64,000 nucleotides of DNA, taken from contig CM059431.1 in the NCBI GenBank assembly GCA_030390025.1, positions 117,182,001 through 117,246,000 on the forward strand, given 5' to 3'. Shown piece by piece: positions 4,930 to 57,445 of the stretch (its first letter is position 1; each line of letters starts with the position of its first letter). The position numbers and the translations under genes are program-made. The notes under the pieces were generated by a model. The model did not search any database and was not told the origin of the DNA. It saw only the letters and a program-made list of their open reading frames with translations. This DNA is from Squalus acanthias (Eukaryota).

Positions 4930-6485
4930 TCAGATCTTGTGTGGCATCAAGCTGCGACTGCATGAGAGCAGGCTGAGATTGGATGCCACAAATCATAGAC
5001 TCCATTACAGCACTAAGACATTGTTTCACTTCCGCCTGTGCTGCATTGGAAGCTGCCAGATCGCCCATCACACGCAGCAGCAGATCTGGGTCGCCAAGGT
5101 CTCTCTGGGAGTTTACCATCCTTTGTAGACTCGAAATGGTGGGCTCCATGGTGTGCGCAGAGCCTTGTATGATGTTGGAGGCAGAATCCTCCACGCTCCT
5201 TACCATTGCCAAGAGGCTCTCGGGCTCCCTTGCCATTGCACCTATCATCTCCGTGTGCATGCCCATCATCCTTCTTCTAAACGCCTCCCTATCGAGGTCC
5301 TCGTATGAGTCCTGAGCAGCAGAACTTGCGCGCGAACTCGCCCTCCGTTGCGCTGGCCCCAGATCTACCCTTTCCCCCTGGCCTTGCTGTAGCCCACTTG
5401 TCACCCAGTGCCTCACCTGTGCAAATCCCGCTATTATACTAACCTCTAAAGAATGCGTAGTGCCAGTATCTGAGCTGGTGTCTGCAGGTGAGAGATGAAG
5501 TGACGCGATGTGTTCTTCCTCCTCCTTTTCTCCCGCCTCGCTCTCTACGGTGCCCTCTGGGACAGGCTGCTCAGCTGCTTGCTCATTATCTGAAAGCATA
5601 AAGGCACAAGAGTCGGGTTAAGGTGAGGGGAGGGGGGACAGGAACCGAGAAATGCATGCATACAGCATGGTTAGCTGGAAAGTGCGAAATGCTTGTGGGG
5701 TGAGGGGGAAGTGGGATGTGAGAAGAAAGAGTAAGGATGAACATACTGTTGTTGTCCCCAAGGAGGGTCAATGTCGCTGGTGGCCACAACACCCACCACC
5801 TGGCGCCCAATAATTTGCAGCGCTCGATTCTCCAGCTCAGACAGTGGTTGGGTGTTGGCTTGTCCCCCGCCTGTGCACTCCTGCTCCCTCCTGTTGTGCG
5901 TCACCTTGGCCTGTAAGAGAAAGGAAAGTGTGTGATTGAGTGTGGAGCAATGTGTTTGGGTGATGTGCCTGCCATAGTTGAATAGCTGTCATTGTGTGCA
6001 AGGTGTGAGATGTGGGTGTGAGTGTTGGTAGGTAGAGATTGTTAGTGGGTGAGTGCTGGGAGTTTGGTGCTTTGGGCAGTGTGTGAAGATTGTGGTACAG
6101 ATGGTGGTATGTAGCATTTGTTGAAGCATTCAATCACCCTGACCACCCGAGTGAGGTCGTTAAATTTCTTCCTGCACTGGGTGTGGGTCCTGGGGACCAC
6201 AGTGCTGCCCGAGACATTCTGCATTACCTCCCTCCACATGGTGTGGAAGACTTGTGGCGAGGGCCTCCTGCCACTTGCTGGGTAGAGCACCACCCTCCGT
6301 CTCTCCACAGCGAACACCAATGCCTCCAATGCTTCATCGGAGAATCTGCGGGTTCTCTCCCTGGGGTGTGGACCTGCCATGAGCACACCTGGTTCAGTCC
6401 TCCAGCTCCTTCTCCTTGTTCTGCTTCTGCTTGCTGAGACAGCTGCACAGGCAGCAATGTTGAGAATGAGGTGCTGTAGCAGCAA
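4930..6485 (-). pseudogene. Harbinger Myb/SANT-like DNA-binding gene, 3 exons (~6485-6138, 5910-5747, 5589-~4930)
   Basis: RFSDEALEALV...WREV...RTHTQCRKKFNDL trihelix/Myb motif; GT-AG sites at 6137/5911 (phase 0) and 5746/5590; 1-nt frameshift near the end of exon 2. Confidence 0.85.
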
Positions 6486-6713
6486 TGAACCTCCCCTTTA
6501 AGTAGTGAAAAAAGCCTGTGCCAATGATGAGTTGTGATTAGACTGCACCCAATATTGGTCCAGCCTTTAAGGGTAATGCCAATGAGCTTGGATTTTAAGA
6601 CTTGATTTAGGACTCCAATCATTTTATTCAGCAGTGAGGATGAATTTTATGTGCAGTCCAAAGCATTTGCGCCTGGCGCCACCCATTCCTTGGCTATAAC
6701 GAATTTCTAGCCC

Positions 6714-7610
6714 AAAGTTGCTCCCACCCTGGTATAGCCCCCTTCTCTCCCTGAAGTCCAAGGGGTGCAGGCTTGAATGTATCTGGTGCACTTGTTTAGC
6801 TATTCATTGTCATATCTGAATGAACCACTTTAAGCACTACCGGGCCCTGCTCTCCTCTGCCAAAACTGTACACTTTTCTAGGATCTTCCCCCTGCCCCCA
6901 CAACCCCACCACACCCCCCGGCCTCTTTTCTACACTACCAGCCATCTTCTTAAATCCCTCTCCCCTACCCCTCCACCCTCACCTCCAAATACAAGTGCGA
7001 GGAGCTTGTGGATTTCTTTGTCACTAAGATAGAGACCATCCATTCAGCTGCCTTTGACATTTCGCCTCCTCCTTTTGTCCACTAAGACAAATTTCCCGCA
7101 AGGTGCCCCCATGCCCAAGCCCTGAACCCGTATCGTTTTCTATTTTCTCTTCTATCTCCCCTTATGCCCTCTCCGAGCTCATCTTGTCCATGAGACGCAC
7201 CTTCTGCTCTCTCGACCCTATTCCCACTAAATTGTTGATTTCCTTCCTGGCCCCTCTGCTAGCTGACATTGTAAACGGTTCTCTCTCCTCAGGAACTATC
7301 CCCATCCATTCCAAAACTGTTGTCGTTACACCGTCGCAAAAAAAAACATATTTGAAAATTCCCATCTCCAATGTTCTTTCCTCTTAAGTCCTTGAATGTG
7401 TTGTCGCCTCCCAAATCTGTGCCAATCTTTCCCGCAACTCCATATTTGAATCTCACGAATTAGGTTTCTGCCCCTGCCAGAGTACTGAAATGGTCCTAAT
7501 CAAAGAGTCAAATGACATCCTCTGTAAGTATCACCATGGCGCACTGCTCCTATTCTTCTCAACCTTTCTGCAGCCTTTCACATGTTCGACCACACCATCC
7601 TCCTTCAATA
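6714..7610 (+). mobile_element. L2 LINE, linker and RT N-terminus (3' continuation)
   Basis: SLDPIPTKLL, LAPLLADIVNGSLSSG, GF..STEM and SAAFHMFDHTILL-like motifs. Confidence 0.8.
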
Positions 7611-7611
7611 A

Positions 7612-8003
7612 TATAAGGACATAGGAACAGGAGTAGTCCATTCAGCACCGTGACAATTTTCCGCTATTCAATTAGATAAGGCCTGATCTAGACCTCAACT
7701 CCATTTACCGGCCTTTGCTTTATATCCCTTGGTAAACTTACCCAACAAAAAACTATCGCTCTCAGCCTTGAAAATTTCAATTGATCCAGCATTAACAGCC
7801 TTTTGGGGAGAGGGTCCAGATTTAAACATTCTTTGTGTGAAACAGTGCTTCCTGATTTCACTCCTAAATGTCCTAGGTCTAATTTTAATATTAGATCCCC
7901 TTGTTCTGGATTCCCCCACCAGAGGAAATAGTTTCTCTGTATCTGCCTGAACAAATTCCTTTTTAAAGACCTTGATTAGGTCACTGTTCAACCTTCTGAT
8001 CTC
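7612..8003 (-). mobile_element. CR1 3' fragment
   Basis: RRLNSDLIKVFK...KLFPLVGESRTRG...FTQR plus a CR1-type 3' UTR. Confidence 0.85.
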
Positions 8004-8199
8004 AAGATGATAGCGAATTGGCAACCCGTTTTATATCTCTCCCGATTTTTATTTCCACAGTTGGAACAAAAAATCGGGAGAGATGTAAAATAGGCTGCCA
8101 ACTCACTATCATGATGCGGAGATGCCGGTGTTGGACTGGGGTGGACAAAATTGAGAGGTCGCACAACACCAGGTTATAGTCCAACAGTTTTATTTGAAA

Positions 8200-8237
8200 T
8201 CACAAGCTTTCGGAACTATCGCTCCTTCCTCAGGTGA
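8200..8237 (-). ncRNA. Minimal type I hammerhead ribozyme motif (pLTR, minus arm)
   Basis: Reverse complement of 10043-10080. Confidence 0.75.
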
Positions 8238-8572
8238 AGTAAATTGGATACAGAATCGTCAGAGCATATATAGATGGAAAAAAAAGCATGTGTACTTTAC
8301 AATTGCAGACCAATAAATTAAATCATCCTGACTATCTGCCGAGGTGTGATAAAGTTAATTAAGTCAGCCAGGAAGGTACCACATCAAAAGACATAGCAAG
8401 ATACAACTGAGACAATGAGGTGAAGTCGCAGGGGTTCTAACGTGTCAAAAGCTGCCGTCTGTATGTAAAACGAAAAGCTTTAAAAAAAAAATTTACTTTT
8501 TTACTGGGAAAATTTTTACTTTTTTACTGGGAATCACATCTGTGAACAAGCTAACGACGACTCGAGTCCGGA

Positions 8573-9482
8573 TCACGTCATGTATCGTGACATAAACCCA
8601 AGATCCCGATTGAGACCGTCTTCATGAGTGCAGAACTTGGCTATCAGTTTCTGCTCGATGATTTTGCGTTGTCGTGTGTTTCTAAGGTTGCCTTGGAGAA
8701 CGCTTACCCGCAGATCCGAGGCTGAATGTCCTTGACTGCTGAAGTGTTCCCCGACTGGGAGGTAACAATCCTGCCTGGCGATTGTTGCGCGGTGCTCGTT
8801 CATACGTTGTCTCAGTGTCTGCATGGTCTCGCCGATGTACCATGCCGCGGTGCATTCTTTCCTGCAACGTATGAGGTAGACAACGTTGGCCGAGTCACAT
8901 GAGTATGTACCATGTACCTGGTGGGTAGTGTCCTCACGTGTGATGGTGGTATCTGTGTTGATGATCTGGCATGTCTTGCAGAGTTTGCCATGGCAGGGTT
9001 GTGTGGTGTCGTGGTCGCTGTTATCCTGAAAGCTGGGTAATTTGCTGCGAACGATGGTACTTCTGAGGTTAGGCGGCTGTTTGAAGGCAAGTAGTGGAGG
9101 CGTGGGGATGGCCTTAGCGAGGTGTTTGTCGTCATCGATGACATGTTGAAGGCTGCGAAGAACATGGCGTAGTTTCTCCGCTCCGGGGAAGTACTGGACG
9201 ACGTAGGGTACCCTGTTGGTTGTGTCCCGTGTTTGCCTTCTGAGGAGGTCTATGCGATTTTTCGCTGTGGCCCGTCGGAACTGTCGATCGATGAGTCGAG
9301 CGTCATATCCCGTTCTTACGAGGGCGTTTTTCAGCGTCCGTAGGTGTCCATCGCGTTCCTCCTCGTCTGAGCAGATCCTGTGTATTCGCAGGGCTTGTCC
9401 ATAGGGGATGGCTTCTTTAACATGGTTAGGGTGGAAGCTGGAGAAGTGGAGCATCGTGAGGTTGTCCGTGGGCTTGCGGTAG
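8573..9482 (-). CDS. PLE ORF C-terminus: RT thumb, Cys linker and GIY-YIG endonuclease (open frame, 5'-truncated)
   Basis: YRKPTDNLTMLHFSSFHP thumb motif, PCHGKLCKTC linker, NVVYLIRC...WYIGET..TLRQRMNEH and GLNRD. Confidence 0.9.
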
Positions 9483-10042
9483 CACCACGCAACAATCGCC
9501 AGGCAGGATTGTTACCTCCCAGTCGGGGAACACTTCAGCAGTCAAGGACATTCAGCCTCGGATCTGCGGGTAAGCGTTCTCCAAGGCAACCTTAGAAACA
9601 CACGACAACGCAAAATCATCGAGCAGAAACTGATAGCCAAGTTCTGCACTCATGAAGACGGTCTCAATCGGGATCTTGGGTTTATGTCACGATACATGAC
9701 GTGATCCGGACTCGAGTCGTCGTTAGCTTGTTCACAGATGTGATTCCCAGTAAAAAAGTAAAAATTTTCCCAGTAAAAAAGTAAATTTTTTTTTTTTTAA
9801 AGCTTTTCGTTTTACATACAGACGGCAGCTTTTGACACGTTAGAACCCCTGCGACTTCACCTCATTGTCTCAGTTGTATCTTGCTATGTCTTTTGATGTG
9901 GTACCTTCCTGGCTGACTTAATTAACTTTATCACACCTCGGCAGATAGTCAGGATGATTTAATTTATTGGTCTGCAATTGTAAAGTACACATGCTTTTTT
10001 TTCCATCTATATATGCTCTGACGATTCTGTATCCAATTTACT

Positions 10043-10080
10043 TCACCTGAGGAAGGAGCGATAGTTCCGAAAGCTTGTGA
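10043..10080 (+). ncRNA. Minimal type I hammerhead ribozyme motif (pLTR, plus arm)
   Basis: UCAC-CUGAGGA-A-GGAGC(GAUA)GUUCC-GAAA-GC-UU-GUGA: conserved core, 5-bp stem II, stem I UCAC/GUGA, palindromic AAGCUU stem III. Confidence 0.75.
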
Positions 10081-10349
10081 TTTCAAATAAAACTGTTGGA
10101 CTATAACCTGGTGTTGTGCGACCTCTCAATTTTAACTCACTATCACCCATTATACACTATCACACAAAGTCAAGATATATGCCCATGAGTTTTATTATAA
10201 TTAACGGCCTTAAAGCAGGCTGCATATAGTGATACCACTATTCCCGACCAGAATGGAGATGATTGGGTAATTTCCCTGTCAATCACGCCTGGAGACGGCA
10301 CTGCTCTGAGTGACTGGATTGATTTTACGCACATAATTTACAAAGTATT

Positions 10350-10975
10350 AACATCACAGAAACCGGCCATTTGGTCCAACCGGTCCAGGCCGGTGTTTAT
10401 GCTCCACACAAGCCTCTTCCCACCACTCTTCACCTAACCCCATCAAGATAGCCTATTCCTTTCTCCCTCATGTGCTTATCTAGCTTCCCCTTGAATGCGC
10501 CTGTGCCATTCGCCTCAACTACTCCCTGTGGTAGGAGTTCCACATTCGAACCACTCTTTGGGTAAAGAAGTTTCTCCTAAATTCCCTATTGGATTTATTA
10601 GTGACTGTCTTATATTTATGGCCCTTAGTTCTGGTCTCCCCCGCAAGTGGAAACACCTTCTTTACATCTACCCTTGCAAACCTTTTCATAATCTTGAAGA
10701 CCTCTATCAGGTAACTCCTCAGTCTTCTCTTTTCCAGTAAATCATTTTTGTAACTTCTCCAGAGCCTCTCTATCCTTTTTCTAATATGGAGACCAGAAAT
10801 GTTCACAGTACTCCAAGTGTGGTCTAACCAAGAATCTATACAAGCTTAACATGACTTCTCTGCTTTCCAATTCTATCCCTCTAGAAATGACCCACAGTGC
10901 TTTGTTTGCTTTTTTTTTTATAGCTTTATTAACCTGTGTCACTACTTTTCCTGATCTGTGAATCTGTACCATCTG
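10350..10975 (-). mobile_element. CR1 3' fragment
   Basis: LVRPHLEYC, RRLRSYLIEVFKIM and FFTQRVVRMWNS on the minus strand. Confidence 0.85.
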
Positions 10976-11615
10976 TAATGGAATGCTAGCCTTTATATCT
11001 AGAGGACTAGAATACAAGGGGGTAGAGGTTATGCTGCAGTTGTACAAAACCCTGGTTAGACCACACCTGGAGTACTGTGAGCAGTTCTGGGCACCACACC
11101 TTAGGAAGGATATATTGGCCTTGGAGGGAGTGCAGCGTAGGTTTACCAGAATGATACCCGGACTTCAAGGGTTAAGTTACAAGGAGGAATTACACAAATT
11201 AGGGTTGTATTTGCTAGAATTTAGAAGGTTAAGGGGTGATCTGATTGATGTTTTCAGGATATTAAGGGGAACAGATAGAGTAGATAGAAAGAAACTATTC
11301 TGCTGGTTGGGGATTCTAGGACTAGGGGGCATAGTCTAACAATTAGAGCCAGACCTTTCAGAAGTGAAATTCGGAAACACTTCTACACACAAAGGGTGGT
11401 AGAAGTTTGGAACTCTCTTCTGCAAACAGCAATTGATGCTAGATCAATTGTTAATTTTAAATCAGAGATTGATAGCTTTCTGTTAACCAAAGGTATTAAG
11501 GGATATGGGCCAAAGGCAGGTATATGGAGTTAGGTCATAGATCAGCCATGATATCATTGAATGGCGGAACAGGCTTGAGGATCTGAATGGTCTACTCCTG
11601 TTCCTATGTTCCTCT
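10976..11615 (+). mobile_element. CR1 3' fragment (different subfamily, head-to-head with the previous copy)
   Basis: [37 protein letters not shown] and a 3' tail ending cctatgttcct. Confidence 0.9.
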
Positions 11616-13377: not shown

Positions 13378-13600
13378 CATCTGTTTATCATCCGATACTA
13401 CAGCTTTAGTATCATAATCACCTGTTATCATTGGAATACAAGTGAAAGGGATATGAACCTTCCAGTGATAATGAATGTGCTATAATAAAGAGGATCTCCA
13501 GCATCAGGCGTTCTTTTAGAAAGTGAACAGATACAAAGAGTTATGATTGACATTCTTGTTCAGTCCATTTTTGTTGAGTATGACTTTTTTTTAAAACAGT

Positions 13601-13775
13601 GGGGCTAATTTTGACTTTGTGCAACAGTGTAAAATGGGGAATAGCGAATCGGCAGCCCGTTTTACATCTCTCCCGATTGACTTCAATGGAAATAAAAATC
13701 GGGGGAGATGTAAAACTGGCTGCTGATTCACTTTCACCCATTTTTACACTATCGTACAAAGTCAAAATTATCCCC
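13601..13775. mobile_element. 175-bp palindromic Harbinger MITE
   Basis: GGGGCTAATTTTGACTTTGT / ACAAAGTCAAAATTATCCCC termini; 3-bp TSD AGT. Confidence 0.85.
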
Positions 13776-13879
13776 AGTGAGTGCTGTTGATATAATGGAG
13801 GGTTCAGAAGTACAAAGGCTTGGAAAAAAAACTCCTAAAAGAGCCCAACACTATGTGGAAGCTGAATTAACATAGACAT

Positions 13880-20559: not shown

Positions 20560-23500
20560 CTCCTCTTCTTGGTTCAACCAAGACTGGTAAACCAAGATTA
20601 GTAATGGAGAGGAGCAAGGAACAATCTAGAGTGGAACTTCTAAACTGGAATAGGGCTTACTTCAATGGGATGCGAAAGGATCTAGCCAGGGTAAAATGGA
20701 ACCAAAGACTGACAGGAAAAACTGTAACGGAACAATGGGTGATCTTTACGGAGGAGATGTTCCAAGTACAGGCTAGGTACATTACAATAAGAGGGTAAGG
20801 GAACCAAAGCAAGGGCTCCTTGGATGACAAGGGAGATAGAGAAGATAATGAAACAAAGAAAGAGGGTGTATGATGCATGTCAGGTGAATTCTTCAAGGGA
20901 GAACCAGACCAAATACAATAAGTTGAGAGGGGAAGTGAAGTTGAAAATAAGATTGGCAAAGAGAATATGAAAGTAGAATGGCGGTTAACATAAAAGGGAA
21001 CCCAAAAATCTTCTACCAGCATGTAAACAGAAAGCGGGTAGTAAGAGGCGGGATGGGGCCTATTAGGGACAAAGAAGGTGATATATGCTTAGAGGTGCAG
21101 GGCAAGTCTAGAATACTCAATGAGTACTTTGTATCGGTGTTTACTGAGGAGATGGATGCTGACAAAATATCGGTAGCAGTGGAAAAGGTAGAAGCAATGA
21201 AAGGGGTGAAAATTGATAGAGAGGATGTACGAGAAAGGCTGGGTATGCTTAGAGTGGATAAGTCGCTTGGTCCAGATGGCTTGCATCCCAGGTTGCTAAG
21301 GGAATTGGGGGAGGAGATTGCGGAAGCGTTTGCCATAATTTTCCAATCTTCCCTAGACGTGGGGGAGGTGCCTGAGGATTGAAAAGTGGCAAATGTGACA
21401 CCATTGTTCAAGAAAGGGTGTCAGGACAATCCTAGTAACTACAGGCTGGTCAGTTTAACATCAGTGGTGGGTAAAGTTTTAGAAACAATAATCAAGGAAA
21501 AATTAATGAGCACTGGAGAGGTTTAACCTAATTAAGGAGAGCCAACACGGATTTGTAAAAGGTAGATTGTGTTTGACTAATCTAATTGAAGTTTTTGACG
21601 AAGTAACAGGGAGGATTGATGAAGGGAATGCAATGGATGTTGTCTACATGGATTTTAGGTAGGTGTTTGACAAAGTACCACATAGAAGGCTGGTTAACAC
21701 AATTGAGGCTCATGTAATAGGTGGGTCAGTGGCAGCTTGGATAAGGAATTGGCTTGAGGATAGAAAACAGCAAGTTGTGGTAAATGGCTGTTTTCAGACT
21801 GGAGGATGGTAGACAGTGGTGTTCCCCAAGGGTCAGTGCTGGGGCCACTGCTTTTTTCGATACATATAAATGACCTGGATATTGGAATACAGAGTAGAAT
21901 TTCTAAATTTGCCGATGACACCAAACTTGGGGGTGTGGTAAACAGTGAGGATTATACCAATCGACTGCAGCAGGACATAGAAAGGCTAGCAGAATGGGCA
22001 GACAAATGGCAGATGGAATTTAATACAGAGAATTGTGAGGTGATGCATTCTGGCAGAAGGAACAGAGAGGCAATATACACTTAATGGCACAGTTTTAAAG
22101 ATTGTGCAGGGACAGAGGGACCTGGGAGTTGATGTGCATAGGTCCCTGAAGGTGGCAGGACATATTGAGAGAGTGGTTCGATCTTGGGCTTCATAAATAG
22201 AGGTATTGAGTACAAATGTAGAGAAGTTATGCTGAAACTTTATAAAGTGCTGGTTAGGCCACAACTGGAGTATTGCGTCTGGTTCTGGTCACCACACTTT
22301 AGGAAGGATGTGAATGCCCTTGAGAGGGAGCAGAGGAGATTTACCAGAATGGTTTCGGGGATGGGGGATCTTAGCTACAAGGACATGTTGGAGAAGCTGG
22401 ATTTGTTTTAATTAGAGTAAAGGAGGTTGAGGGGTGATTTGATAGCAGTGTGCAAGATTATGACGGGTTTGGATAGGCTAGACAGGGAAAGGCTGTTCTC
22501 ACTAGTTGATGATACAAGGACTAGGGGACACAGACTTAAGGTTTTGGGCATGAGATACAGGGGGGATGTGAGGAAAAACTTTTTTACGCAGCGAGTGGTG
22601 AGGACCTAGAACTCGCTGCCGACGGAAGTGGTGGAAGTGGAGGCACTCAGGGCTGGATTTTCATTGACCCGTGGAGTCGGGTTTGGAGGCGTGTGGGGGG
22701 TTAAAGTTGCAGATTCGGGTGTCCCGAACCCATCCCACCCCCAACCCGCTTCCATGCCAGTATCACTGGAGGCGGGTACCCGACCTGTGCTGGGACCCGC
22801 CTCGGGGGATTAGTGGCAATAAACTGCCTGTTAACAGGTAGTTAACAGGCAGTTTTTTGCCTAATCCCTATTTTGATGCATGAAATGTGGGCTTCCCGAC
22901 AGGTCTCAACCACGCCAAGTTAGCGAGGCAGACCGTGGGTCTGCAGGGGTTGGAGGGGTCGATATGTCCGGTGGGCAGGTGAGTGATGGGTGCATGTGTG
23001 CAGAGGTAAGTGTGTAAGGTAAGTGCAAAGTGTGGGAAAAAGTTTTACTTACCTTAACTTCCTCCTGCAGGTGTCAGCCCTTCAGGTCTCGGGAGTCAGA
23101 AATCTCACCGGCACAGAAAACAGAATGGCCGTGGTGCTGTCAAAAACTGCAGCCTCTGTTTTCTGTGCTGGAATGATTTCTAACTCAGCCTGAGAGGAAG
23201 CCTGAGAGTAAGGACTCAAGTTAGAGTACAGATTGTCAGTGTTTGACAGCTTCACAGAGCTGTTAAACGCTGATATTTCATCTGTCAAAAGTTCTTGACA
23301 GATGAAATGTCAATCTGTGACGTCACCTGTTGCCGGGTGGCCCTTAATTGGCCTGCTGAGCTCGCTGGGCGGGGTCAACAAGGTCAATCAAGTGAAAATG
23401 CAGTGGGTTGGCCACAAGTCGATGGAGGCGGGACTACAACCCAAAAAGTGGGAGTCCCGCCTCCATCACGTCCCCAGTATCAAAATCCAGCCCTCAATGT

Positions 23501-23660
23501 TTTCAAGGGGAGACTGGATAGGCACTTGAGGGAAATAAACTTGCAGAGCTACGAGGATAGAGCGGGGGAATGGGACTGACTGAATGCTCCACAGAGAGCC
23601 GGCACGGACTCGATGGGCCAAAAGGCCTCCTTCTGTGCCGTTATGACTCTATGACTATGA
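20560..23660 (+). mobile_element. CR1 LINE, 5'-truncated ORF2 with stops; interrupted by a MITE at 22650
   Basis: KSLGPDGLHPRLLRE, SGVPQGSVLGPLLF, KFADDTK; tail tatgactctatgactatgac. Confidence 0.95.
22650..23493. mobile_element. Harbinger MITE (family B)
   Basis: Perfect TIR GGGCTGGATTTT / AAAATCCAGCCC; 3-bp TSD TCA; CR1 sequence resumes on both sides. Confidence 0.95.
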
Positions 23661-24734
23661 CATGACATTCCCCCTGCTGTTCTGTTGCTTGTTTCCTTCT
23701 TGTATTTTGTATAATTAAAATAAAATACCAATAATTTGCATATCTCTGTCCAAGGGCTATTTTCATTGTTTCCAGTGCAGTTCTATCCTTCCCCTACAAA
23801 TCTTCATCAATTCAGTTCTCTGGGAAATGAGCATTTCTTCCATTTTCTCAGTAGCCCATTTTGAATTTCCTTTTCCCAGCCCTGACTTTGAGCAATAAGT
23901 ATACATCTTATCGGAGTCCCAGTAAGACCTTGCAAAACCACTTTTCCCCCTCCTCATACCGTACTTATAACTTTGTGTCGTGAAGACAGAAGACAATATA
24001 GAGTGTAATTAAACATTGGCCCTAAAATTCATGGGGTCAGACAGGGTGTAAGTCGCATTCATGCCGGGGGGGTGGGAGGGGGGCGATAAGAGCCAGAATA
24101 TGGGCTGGATCCAGCCTCTGCAGGGATTTTTCCCCATTTGGAGTGGACCTTTAAATTCCAATATGGGGGTGGGGGGGAAGGGTGGAGTTTGGGCCCAGAC
24201 TAGTTGAGACTTGGTGTGAATTCCTTTTGAGGCCTTCTAGAGTAATGTAATCAATCCTGGAGGGGATCAATTATCTTCTCTAGTTGGAGTCGCTCCAGTG
24301 GGAGCTTAAGAGTTTAAAAATCCATTTTCTCAGACCCAATTGGGCTTCCAGATGACGTTGCTATCCCTTACAAGGGCGGATATGCTCAGGCTGGGGCATC
24401 TGTTGCAAATACACCCTTACAGGTGCCAGTAGCCCACCCTGGCAATGCAAACATCTCCACTCCTGGAATTTGGCATGGGGTCTTTGTCCTTTGACATTGG
24501 CAGGCAGGGTATCTGCTCACTGCACTTACACCGGCAGAATGGGGCTCCAGAAGTTTCCAGGCTGCTGTCCTTACTGCAGCACCTTGATCAATGGAGTGTC
24601 TGTGACCTCTGCCAATGTGGACAAAAATGAAGTGTGGGAAAATGAAATGTATTTGTTGGCTGCAGCTTTGTAAAAGAATGAATGGATTTTTAGAGGAATG
24701 TATTTGTCATTCCTTCAAAGAAAAACAAAGCGTT

Positions 24735-57260: not shown

Positions 57261-57445
57261 AGGGTGAAATTGGTCTTGGGTAGTAGCACAAAATAGCGTG
57301 ATAGCAAATCGGCAGGCCGCTTTATACCGCACCCGATTCTCTTTTCCATTGACTTCAATGGAAAACAAAATAGGACAGGGTATAAAAAGGGTTTCTGATT
57401 TGCCTTCACTCATTTTGTGCTACCACCCAAGCATAAGTTCACCCT
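57261..57445. mobile_element. Palindromic Harbinger-type MITE
   Basis: AGGGTGAAATT / AAGTTCACCCT termini; centre ttttccattgacttcaatggaaaa shared with 13601-13775. Confidence 0.75.

Follow-up and report, generated by a model that had tools for sequence, protein, structure and literature searches.

A head-to-head pair of 5'-truncated Penelope-like element copies within one target-site duplication in Squalus acanthias

The origin of the inverted ends and one-sided tails of Penelope-like elements (PLEs) is not settled, and clean units provide exact nicks, start sites and junctions as data points. One such unit lies in a 64,000-nucleotide stretch of Squalus acanthias contig CM059431.1 (assembly GCA_030390025.1, positions 117,182,001 to 117,246,000), here called the window, and it raises the question of whether two opposed copies entered the host in one event, and by what route. 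Based upon sequence identity and architecture, we propose that it is almost certainly one insertion unit, in which a 1371-nt tailed and a 653-nt tail-less PLE copy, both truncated at the front, stand head to head within an 11-12-bp duplication (Table 1).

Table 1. Window coordinates of the PLE unit, its motifs and the host site.
Feature	Position	Strand	Basis
Host palindromic MITE, left of the insertion (without its outer ~44 nt)	8008..8111	.	79% to 13597-13779
Left target-site duplication (TSD), 12 bp (11-12 bp: last base also fits the family's tail end)	8100..8111	+	
One-sided tail, 35 nt (36 with base 8111)	8112..8146	-	
Long 5'-truncated PLE copy, 1371 nt: RT thumb, linker, endonuclease, 3' UTR, pLTR end, tail	8112..9482	-	
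Left inverted-repeat arm, 650 nt	8147..8796	-	
Minimal type I hammerhead ribozyme motif (predicted)	8200..8237	-	Fold; traits given in the accessible text of PMC4209133
Open 302-codon ORF remnant plus stop, starting at the YRKPTD thumb motif	8573..9481	-	
GIY-YIG endonuclease, CCHH motif, conserved R, H, E, N	8609..8884	-	Pfam PF01541 below cut-off; invariant columns
Single-copy spacer, 684 nt of the long copy	8797..9480	-	
CX4CxxC linker motif, Neptune/Nematis type	8969..8995	-	Translation, alignment, definition in the accessible text of PMC8557442
Head-to-head junction, 2-nt overlap AG	9481..9482	.	
Short inverted 5'-truncated copy, 653 nt: last 73 endonuclease codons, 3' UTR, pLTR end, tail-less	9481..10133	+	
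Second minimal hammerhead motif, identical to the left one (predicted)	10043..10080	+	
Right target-site duplication	10134..10145	+	
Host MITE, right of the insertion	10146..10190	.	Empty site continuous with 13641-13782

When the left arm is locally aligned to the reverse-complemented right arm (10133-9481), the alignment covers 653 columns and shows exactly two differences, namely a 3-nt gap in an A/T run (10 letters on the left, 13 on the right) and a single substitution (8790 C versus 9487). Both arms derive from the same subfamily. The 3' ends of the two copies face outward, and the 35 nt of the tail have no counterpart at the right end. The AG at the junction matches both sides; two contigs of sequencing run X8 continue past 9482 with different letters, which read as the thumb residues STSL of homologues, so that the overlap is exactly 2 nt. 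Searches by blastn (E<=1) and tblastn located no other copy of the element within the window. The first-pass annotation had described the arms as reverse complements that differ in poly-A/T length and one substitution, and had named many substitutions on exact alignment as grounds for refuting it; one substitution and one 3-nt gap are what that alignment revealed, and the outward 3' ends, the tail on the left arm only and the AG at the junction were likewise as described. A TIR transposon or MITE was considered for the unit as a whole and rejected, the arms consisting of retroelement coding sequence and 3' UTR.

The sequence AACTCACTATCA stands at 8100 and at 10134 but at no other place in the 64 kb, whichever strand is read; its chance at one fixed place is about 9e-8. 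Rejoining the flanks over one copy of this 12-mer gives a site which aligns unbroken to a paralogous palindromic MITE at 13641-13782 (80.5% over 149 columns). Since that paralogue has the 12-mer region once, the repeat is a true host duplication, in agreement with the earlier claim of a single insertion unit inside a TSD. The strict length of 12 bp did not survive. Family members at other sites often begin at 8111 (56 contigs in run X5 and 16 in X8, with unrelated flanks whose agreement is 0.39 and 0.44); the last base of the duplication is thus also an element base, and the TSD measures 11-12 bp and the tail 35-36 nt.

The host MITE belongs to a palindromic family of about 180 nt with copies at 13597-13779, 8008-10190 and 57290-57416. 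The copy at 13597 has GGGG...CCCC ends and a 3-nt repeat on its flanks, features of Harbinger-type elements. Rfam returned 12 matches at E<=10, all under the gathering scores: 11 miRNA models, which fell on the MITE hairpin, and one snoRNA model; a pri-miRNA at this place was dismissed, the miRNA matches being those of a generic hairpin. Elsewhere in the window, an ORF piece on the minus strand (6042-6497) contains a Myb/SANT-like domain (PF13873, E=1.8e-6) and is likely the remnant of a Harbinger-type transposon. Sequence related to it lies inverted at about 34860-35570.

The 302-codon open frame (9481-8576, minus strand) specifies the RT thumb, linker and endonuclease. The frame of 293 amino acids noted earlier is indeed open, although these codons run from an internal Met of the longer remnant and not from the start of a gene. 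The remnant is 90% identical across all 302 amino acids (E=2e-181) to P0001, a 643 amino acid RT-EN protein of the shark Heptranchias perlo, which upstream possesses, in one frame, an RVT_1 domain (PF00078) with PADKGG and YIDD motifs. In P0001 the YRKPTD motif comes after the RT core; the junction therefore cuts the thumb, which is all of the RT present at this locus. As the unit is without an RT core, it is not able to move by itself. Further relatives among 24 matches are from sharks, a turtle and a sea urchin. The Pfam GIY-YIG match (PF01541, E=6e-4) scores 20.4 bits and lies below the cut-off of 22.6. Residues C206, C210, H230, H246, Y202, Y215, G217, R226, E276 and N291 are invariant in 9/9 aligned proteins.

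On these motifs, judged by the definitions in the accessible text of PMC8557442, the element is a PLE with a C-terminal endonuclease (EN+) of the Neptune or Nematis type. Its linker residues CHGKLCKTC conform to CX4CxxC, and in that source a CX2-5CxxC linker between RT and EN is typical of Neptune, is also found in Nematis and is lacking in Poseidon; Neptune itself is described there as paraphyletic. The endonuclease follows the RT thumb, as opposed to the N-terminal endonuclease of Naiad/Chlamys; the Cys linker separates the element from Penelope/Poseidon, where there is none, and the retained CCHH and the form of the linker separate it from Hydra, where CCHH is absent and the linker is CxCX5C. 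In the accessible part of bioRxiv 10.64898/2026.07.22.740005, Neptune and Poseidon are the only PLE clades reported in vertebrates. The original identification as a PLE with a Neptune-type Cys linker is supported by the CX4CxxC, the CCHH and the 90% identity to a shark PLE protein.

A PDB sequence search with P0001 gave no match at E<=0.1, and no PLE structure was found among the literature matches listed. A metagenome scan revealed three distant plant-metagenome loci at 29-31% identity. Pieces 54-85% identical to the element protein are also present inside annotated isoforms of shark host genes (P0006, P0009, P0010, P0013, P0018-P0020), including septin 5a, XRCC5, PPP1R12A, follistatin-related 5, USP8 and others; these are either exonised copies or annotation slips.

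Each arm carries a minimal hammerhead motif in its pLTR, a candidate ribozyme. The putative structure has a CUGAGGA core, an extra A, a 5-bp stem II, GAAA, a palindromic AGCU and a 4-bp stem I. The core, the extra base between 9 and 10.1, the G10.1-C11.1 pair and the palindromic 15.2-16.2 agree with traits given in the accessible text of PMC4209133, where opposite-strand hammerhead pairs 100-700 bp apart were described in 2014. The fold energy of the motif does not exceed that of shuffled sequences (z -1.0), and the Rfam search gave no hammerhead match. In the 3' UTR of both arms a 23-nt tandem duplication adjoins the A/T run (8486-8531 and 9744-9789).

The family was followed in public sequencing data. 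Twenty listed runs contain part of 6600-11600. Five of these, all from organism A, contain more than half of the words of that stretch, while several runs of other organisms contain 0.25-0.33. Contigs of 4 of the 20 (X5 at about 55%) were mapped onto 7500-9560, a stretch that ends before the right TSD junction and the direct empty-site joint. No RNA run on record contains the region; X8 is RNA only by guess. With flanking repeats included, 28,079, 22,952, 3,141 and 15,238 contigs were placed in the four runs, and 27%, 28%, 24% and 12% of them, respectively, were at least 99% alike. On that count the family is highly abundant, at 22,952-28,079 contigs in the two DNA runs of organism A, and the share of contigs this alike indicates that organism A has a large subfamily of low divergence. 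At 8795-8796 a CT allele makes up about 30% of the depth in organism A and is absent in organism C.

In the run from organism C (X10), the 3' UTR stretch 8259-8465 is matched by no contig at 90% likeness, while the ORF and the terminal part are deeply covered; the family in this organism thus has a different 3' UTR. An orthologous-looking flank contig of organism C (7908-8107) ends before the insertion site and is uninformative on presence or absence.

At other sites, tailed ends fall at 8111, 8112 and 8114 and tail-less ends at 8148, 8152, 8153 and 8154. Because tail-less ends recur elsewhere, the short arm stops at an end typical of the family and not at a random place. Apparent head-to-head joints at other loci were also found, four in X5 (8573>9531, 8737>9503, 8911>9511 and 9291>9518) and one in X8 (8843>9528), each running from the long copy into the initial 80 nt of the inverted arm. 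In four of the five the sides are separated by 1-10 extra letters, and in one they overlap by 2 nt. Three have sides of 21-25 letters, none is from this locus, and two more opposite-strand joints have sides of 44 and 34. The joints come from the best 15 of 144, plus 12 of the 40 rows of a second table, at a likeness of 90 and mostly with short sides, and are therefore suggestive only.

In other contigs the tail-less end 8153 directly adjoins position 8110 of a copy of the host MITE (depth 4.9 in X3 and 26.7 in X5), and CR1-like copies at 7868 and 7865 are joined to tailed (8114) and tail-less (8148) element ends, respectively. Both target places, 8110 and 7865-7868, have TCACT 3-6 nt before the joint, and an insertion hot spot is possible on these three joints.

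The first-pass annotation called the unit freshly inserted. The single arm substitution is a CG-to-CA transition which replaces Arg with His in the right arm; the aligned proteins have Arg or Lys at this position in 9/9, so the right arm has the derived state. It may have arisen as an error when the unit was made, or later by methyl-CpG decay. Using the mutation rate of the epaulette shark, another species taken as a proxy (7e-10 per site per generation in the accessible text of PMC10587355), one substitution in 650 sites corresponds to 1.1 million generations (95% 0.03-6.1 million), a point value that is likely too high since CpG sites mutate faster; zero substitutions would set a 95% upper bound of 4.1 million generations. 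Where mutation is as slow as in shark genomes, near-identity of the arms does not mark an insertion as fresh, and the identity seen here is compatible with up to 4.1 or 6.1 million generations. Compared with its neighbours, the unit is young, the MITE paralogues being about 80% alike. The suggestion that the family may still be active is likewise not supported by this locus, whose arm identity allows millions of generations; neither an empty allele nor a copy with intact RT was encountered in the window and the contigs listed.

How, then, did the two copies come together? In target-primed reverse transcription (TPRT), staggered nicks with the duplicated bases at the 3' end of each strand yield a TSD. 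We consider it probable that both nicked target strands here separately primed reverse transcription. Staggered nicks would leave 11-12-nt 3' overhangs. The top strand would then prime at the distal (tailed) start site, with cDNA running to the RT thumb. Priming by the bottom strand would be at the internal (tail-less) site, which lies 35-36 nt upstream, and its cDNA would run 650 nt; the two cDNA 3' ends would be joined via the 2-nt AG overlap, and repair would fill the remainder. Such a model would produce outward 3' ends, a one-sided tail and a family-typical short end in one step. According to the accessible text of PMC11167929, an anole PLE protein, predicted to be a dimer, cleaves and extends both strands in vitro and begins reverse transcription at two adjacent internal sites which bound the tail, primer homology being unneeded. 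The anole element belongs to the Poseidon clade and is not of the Neptune type, and in that text the start sites are alike on both strands, which leaves the one-sided tail unexplained there. The AG overlap is itself weak evidence, there being 75 AG dinucleotides in 8147-9480, and the joints at other loci carry the limits given above (short sides, likeness 90, best 15 of 144, none from this locus). Alternatives have been published as well: the accessible texts of PMC8557442 and PMC3846280 propose, respectively, endonuclease resolution for the tail and self-priming for inverted junctions.

Both of these proposals lend themselves to our second-ranked explanation, a fold-back or template switch of a single cDNA, which is possible but which we would not favour. 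The top-strand cDNA would extend to 9482, anneal by its 3' AG to its own CT at 8795-8796 and serve as its own template over 650 nt; cleavage or termination at the tail boundary would then join it to the second nick. The arms, identical at 649/650 positions, are exactly what copying of one cDNA predicts; they have minority alleles in common at 8151, 8157 and 8795-8796, the sequence of the short arm lies wholly within the long copy, and the 2-nt overlap is compatible. Yet this route requires an extra step to end exactly at the family's tail-less end, would rest on the pairing of 2 nt only, and would have to turn at a junction with a 684-nt spacer and no palindrome. The extra letters in four of the five other joints look more like end joining than base-paired snap-back, a weak argument in the same direction. 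A single locus does not decide between two primers and fold-back. The first-pass annotation had offered two-strand priming or a template switch, and both are upheld as candidate mechanisms.

Two further readings carry far less weight. Inverted repeats can undergo gene conversion, and the family is very abundant; the unit could be the product of two independent events, with a second copy landing at the 5' junction of an earlier truncated insertion or with conversion homogenising older arms. This is improbable: a single TSD surrounds both copies with no second duplication, the arms belong to the same minority subfamily, and a base-exact coincidence at the junction would be required. Least probable of all is an assembly artefact from a fold-back read. 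No contig bridging 9481 or the left junction was present among the 32 pieces listed (70,382 others), as an artefact would have it; nor did any of those pieces bridge an empty site. A fold-back read would mirror the flank. Here an exact duplication is followed by the host MITE in its original register, which makes an artefact unlikely; moreover, the arms differ at two places, the turn lies 684 nt off centre, the end of the short arm is one typical of the family, and public contigs contain similar joints.

Returning to priming by both strands, we tentatively suggest that two-armed units might be the in vivo print of a PLE dimer engaged in concerted two-strand TPRT, with one subunit per start site and with preferred targets. 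At the site described here and at two other target sites, TCACT lies a few bases before the top nick. If the dimer reading is true, the two-start-site mechanism of Poseidon would hold for a second clade too, and a single step would account for both the one-sided tails and the inverted ends.

The unit had been presented as remarkable, but an inverted truncated copy, a one-sided tail and a TSD are the published norm, and the locus adds no new architecture. The accessible text of Arkhipova et al. 2013 (PMC3846280) gives the typical Penelope structure as inverted pLTRs, mostly head to head, with a 31-bp tail on one and 8-10-bp TSDs, and that of Craig et al. 2021 (PMC8557442) states the same architecture for all EN+ clades. 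Pen2a_Av of Adineta vaga (PMC3846280) and the unit in Fig. 2 of Craig et al. likewise have an adjacent inverted 5'-truncated copy and flanking inverted repeats. With the canonical EN+ unit in these accounts our locus shares a 30-40-bp tail at one end, the TSD, a pLTR hammerhead motif and the head-to-head arrangement. It differs in that both copies are truncated with no direct 5' pLTR, the inverted copy takes in 73 codons of the endonuclease, the TSD measures 11-12 bp against 8-10 bp, and the junction, which has a 684-nt spacer, lacks a palindrome.

With PAc, the Poseidon element of Anolis carolinensis, the unit has in common, as far as the accessible text of PMC11167929 goes, two end positions which bound the tail, a tail-less end without primer homology and a hammerhead upstream of the ends (here a motif only). 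Poseidon is without the CX2-5CxxC linker of the present element. The PAc start sites lie 111-118 nt into the ORF; here a comparison of the pLTR and tail with four longer relatives found no likeness to their N-termini (the best E, 0.044, lay off the tail), and the tail therefore likely precedes the ORF. PAc is said in that text to prefer ATT, which was not seen at the nicks here.

The C-terminal GIY-YIG with CCHH, the CX4CxxC linker and the DKG motif in P0001 are those of the Neptune clade, a placement made by motifs, with a linker that also occurs in Nematis. In a literature search that covered few subscription journals, nothing turned up that dealt with a Neptune family in sharks, with twin priming in PLEs, or with fold-back, second-strand or head-to-head work on Penelope. 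In LINE-1 twin priming, the second target strand primes a second cDNA, and an inversion joined by microhomology results within one TSD. There the inverted piece derives from a more upstream part of the RNA, and the 3' end is not repeated, whereas here both pieces have the 3' end.
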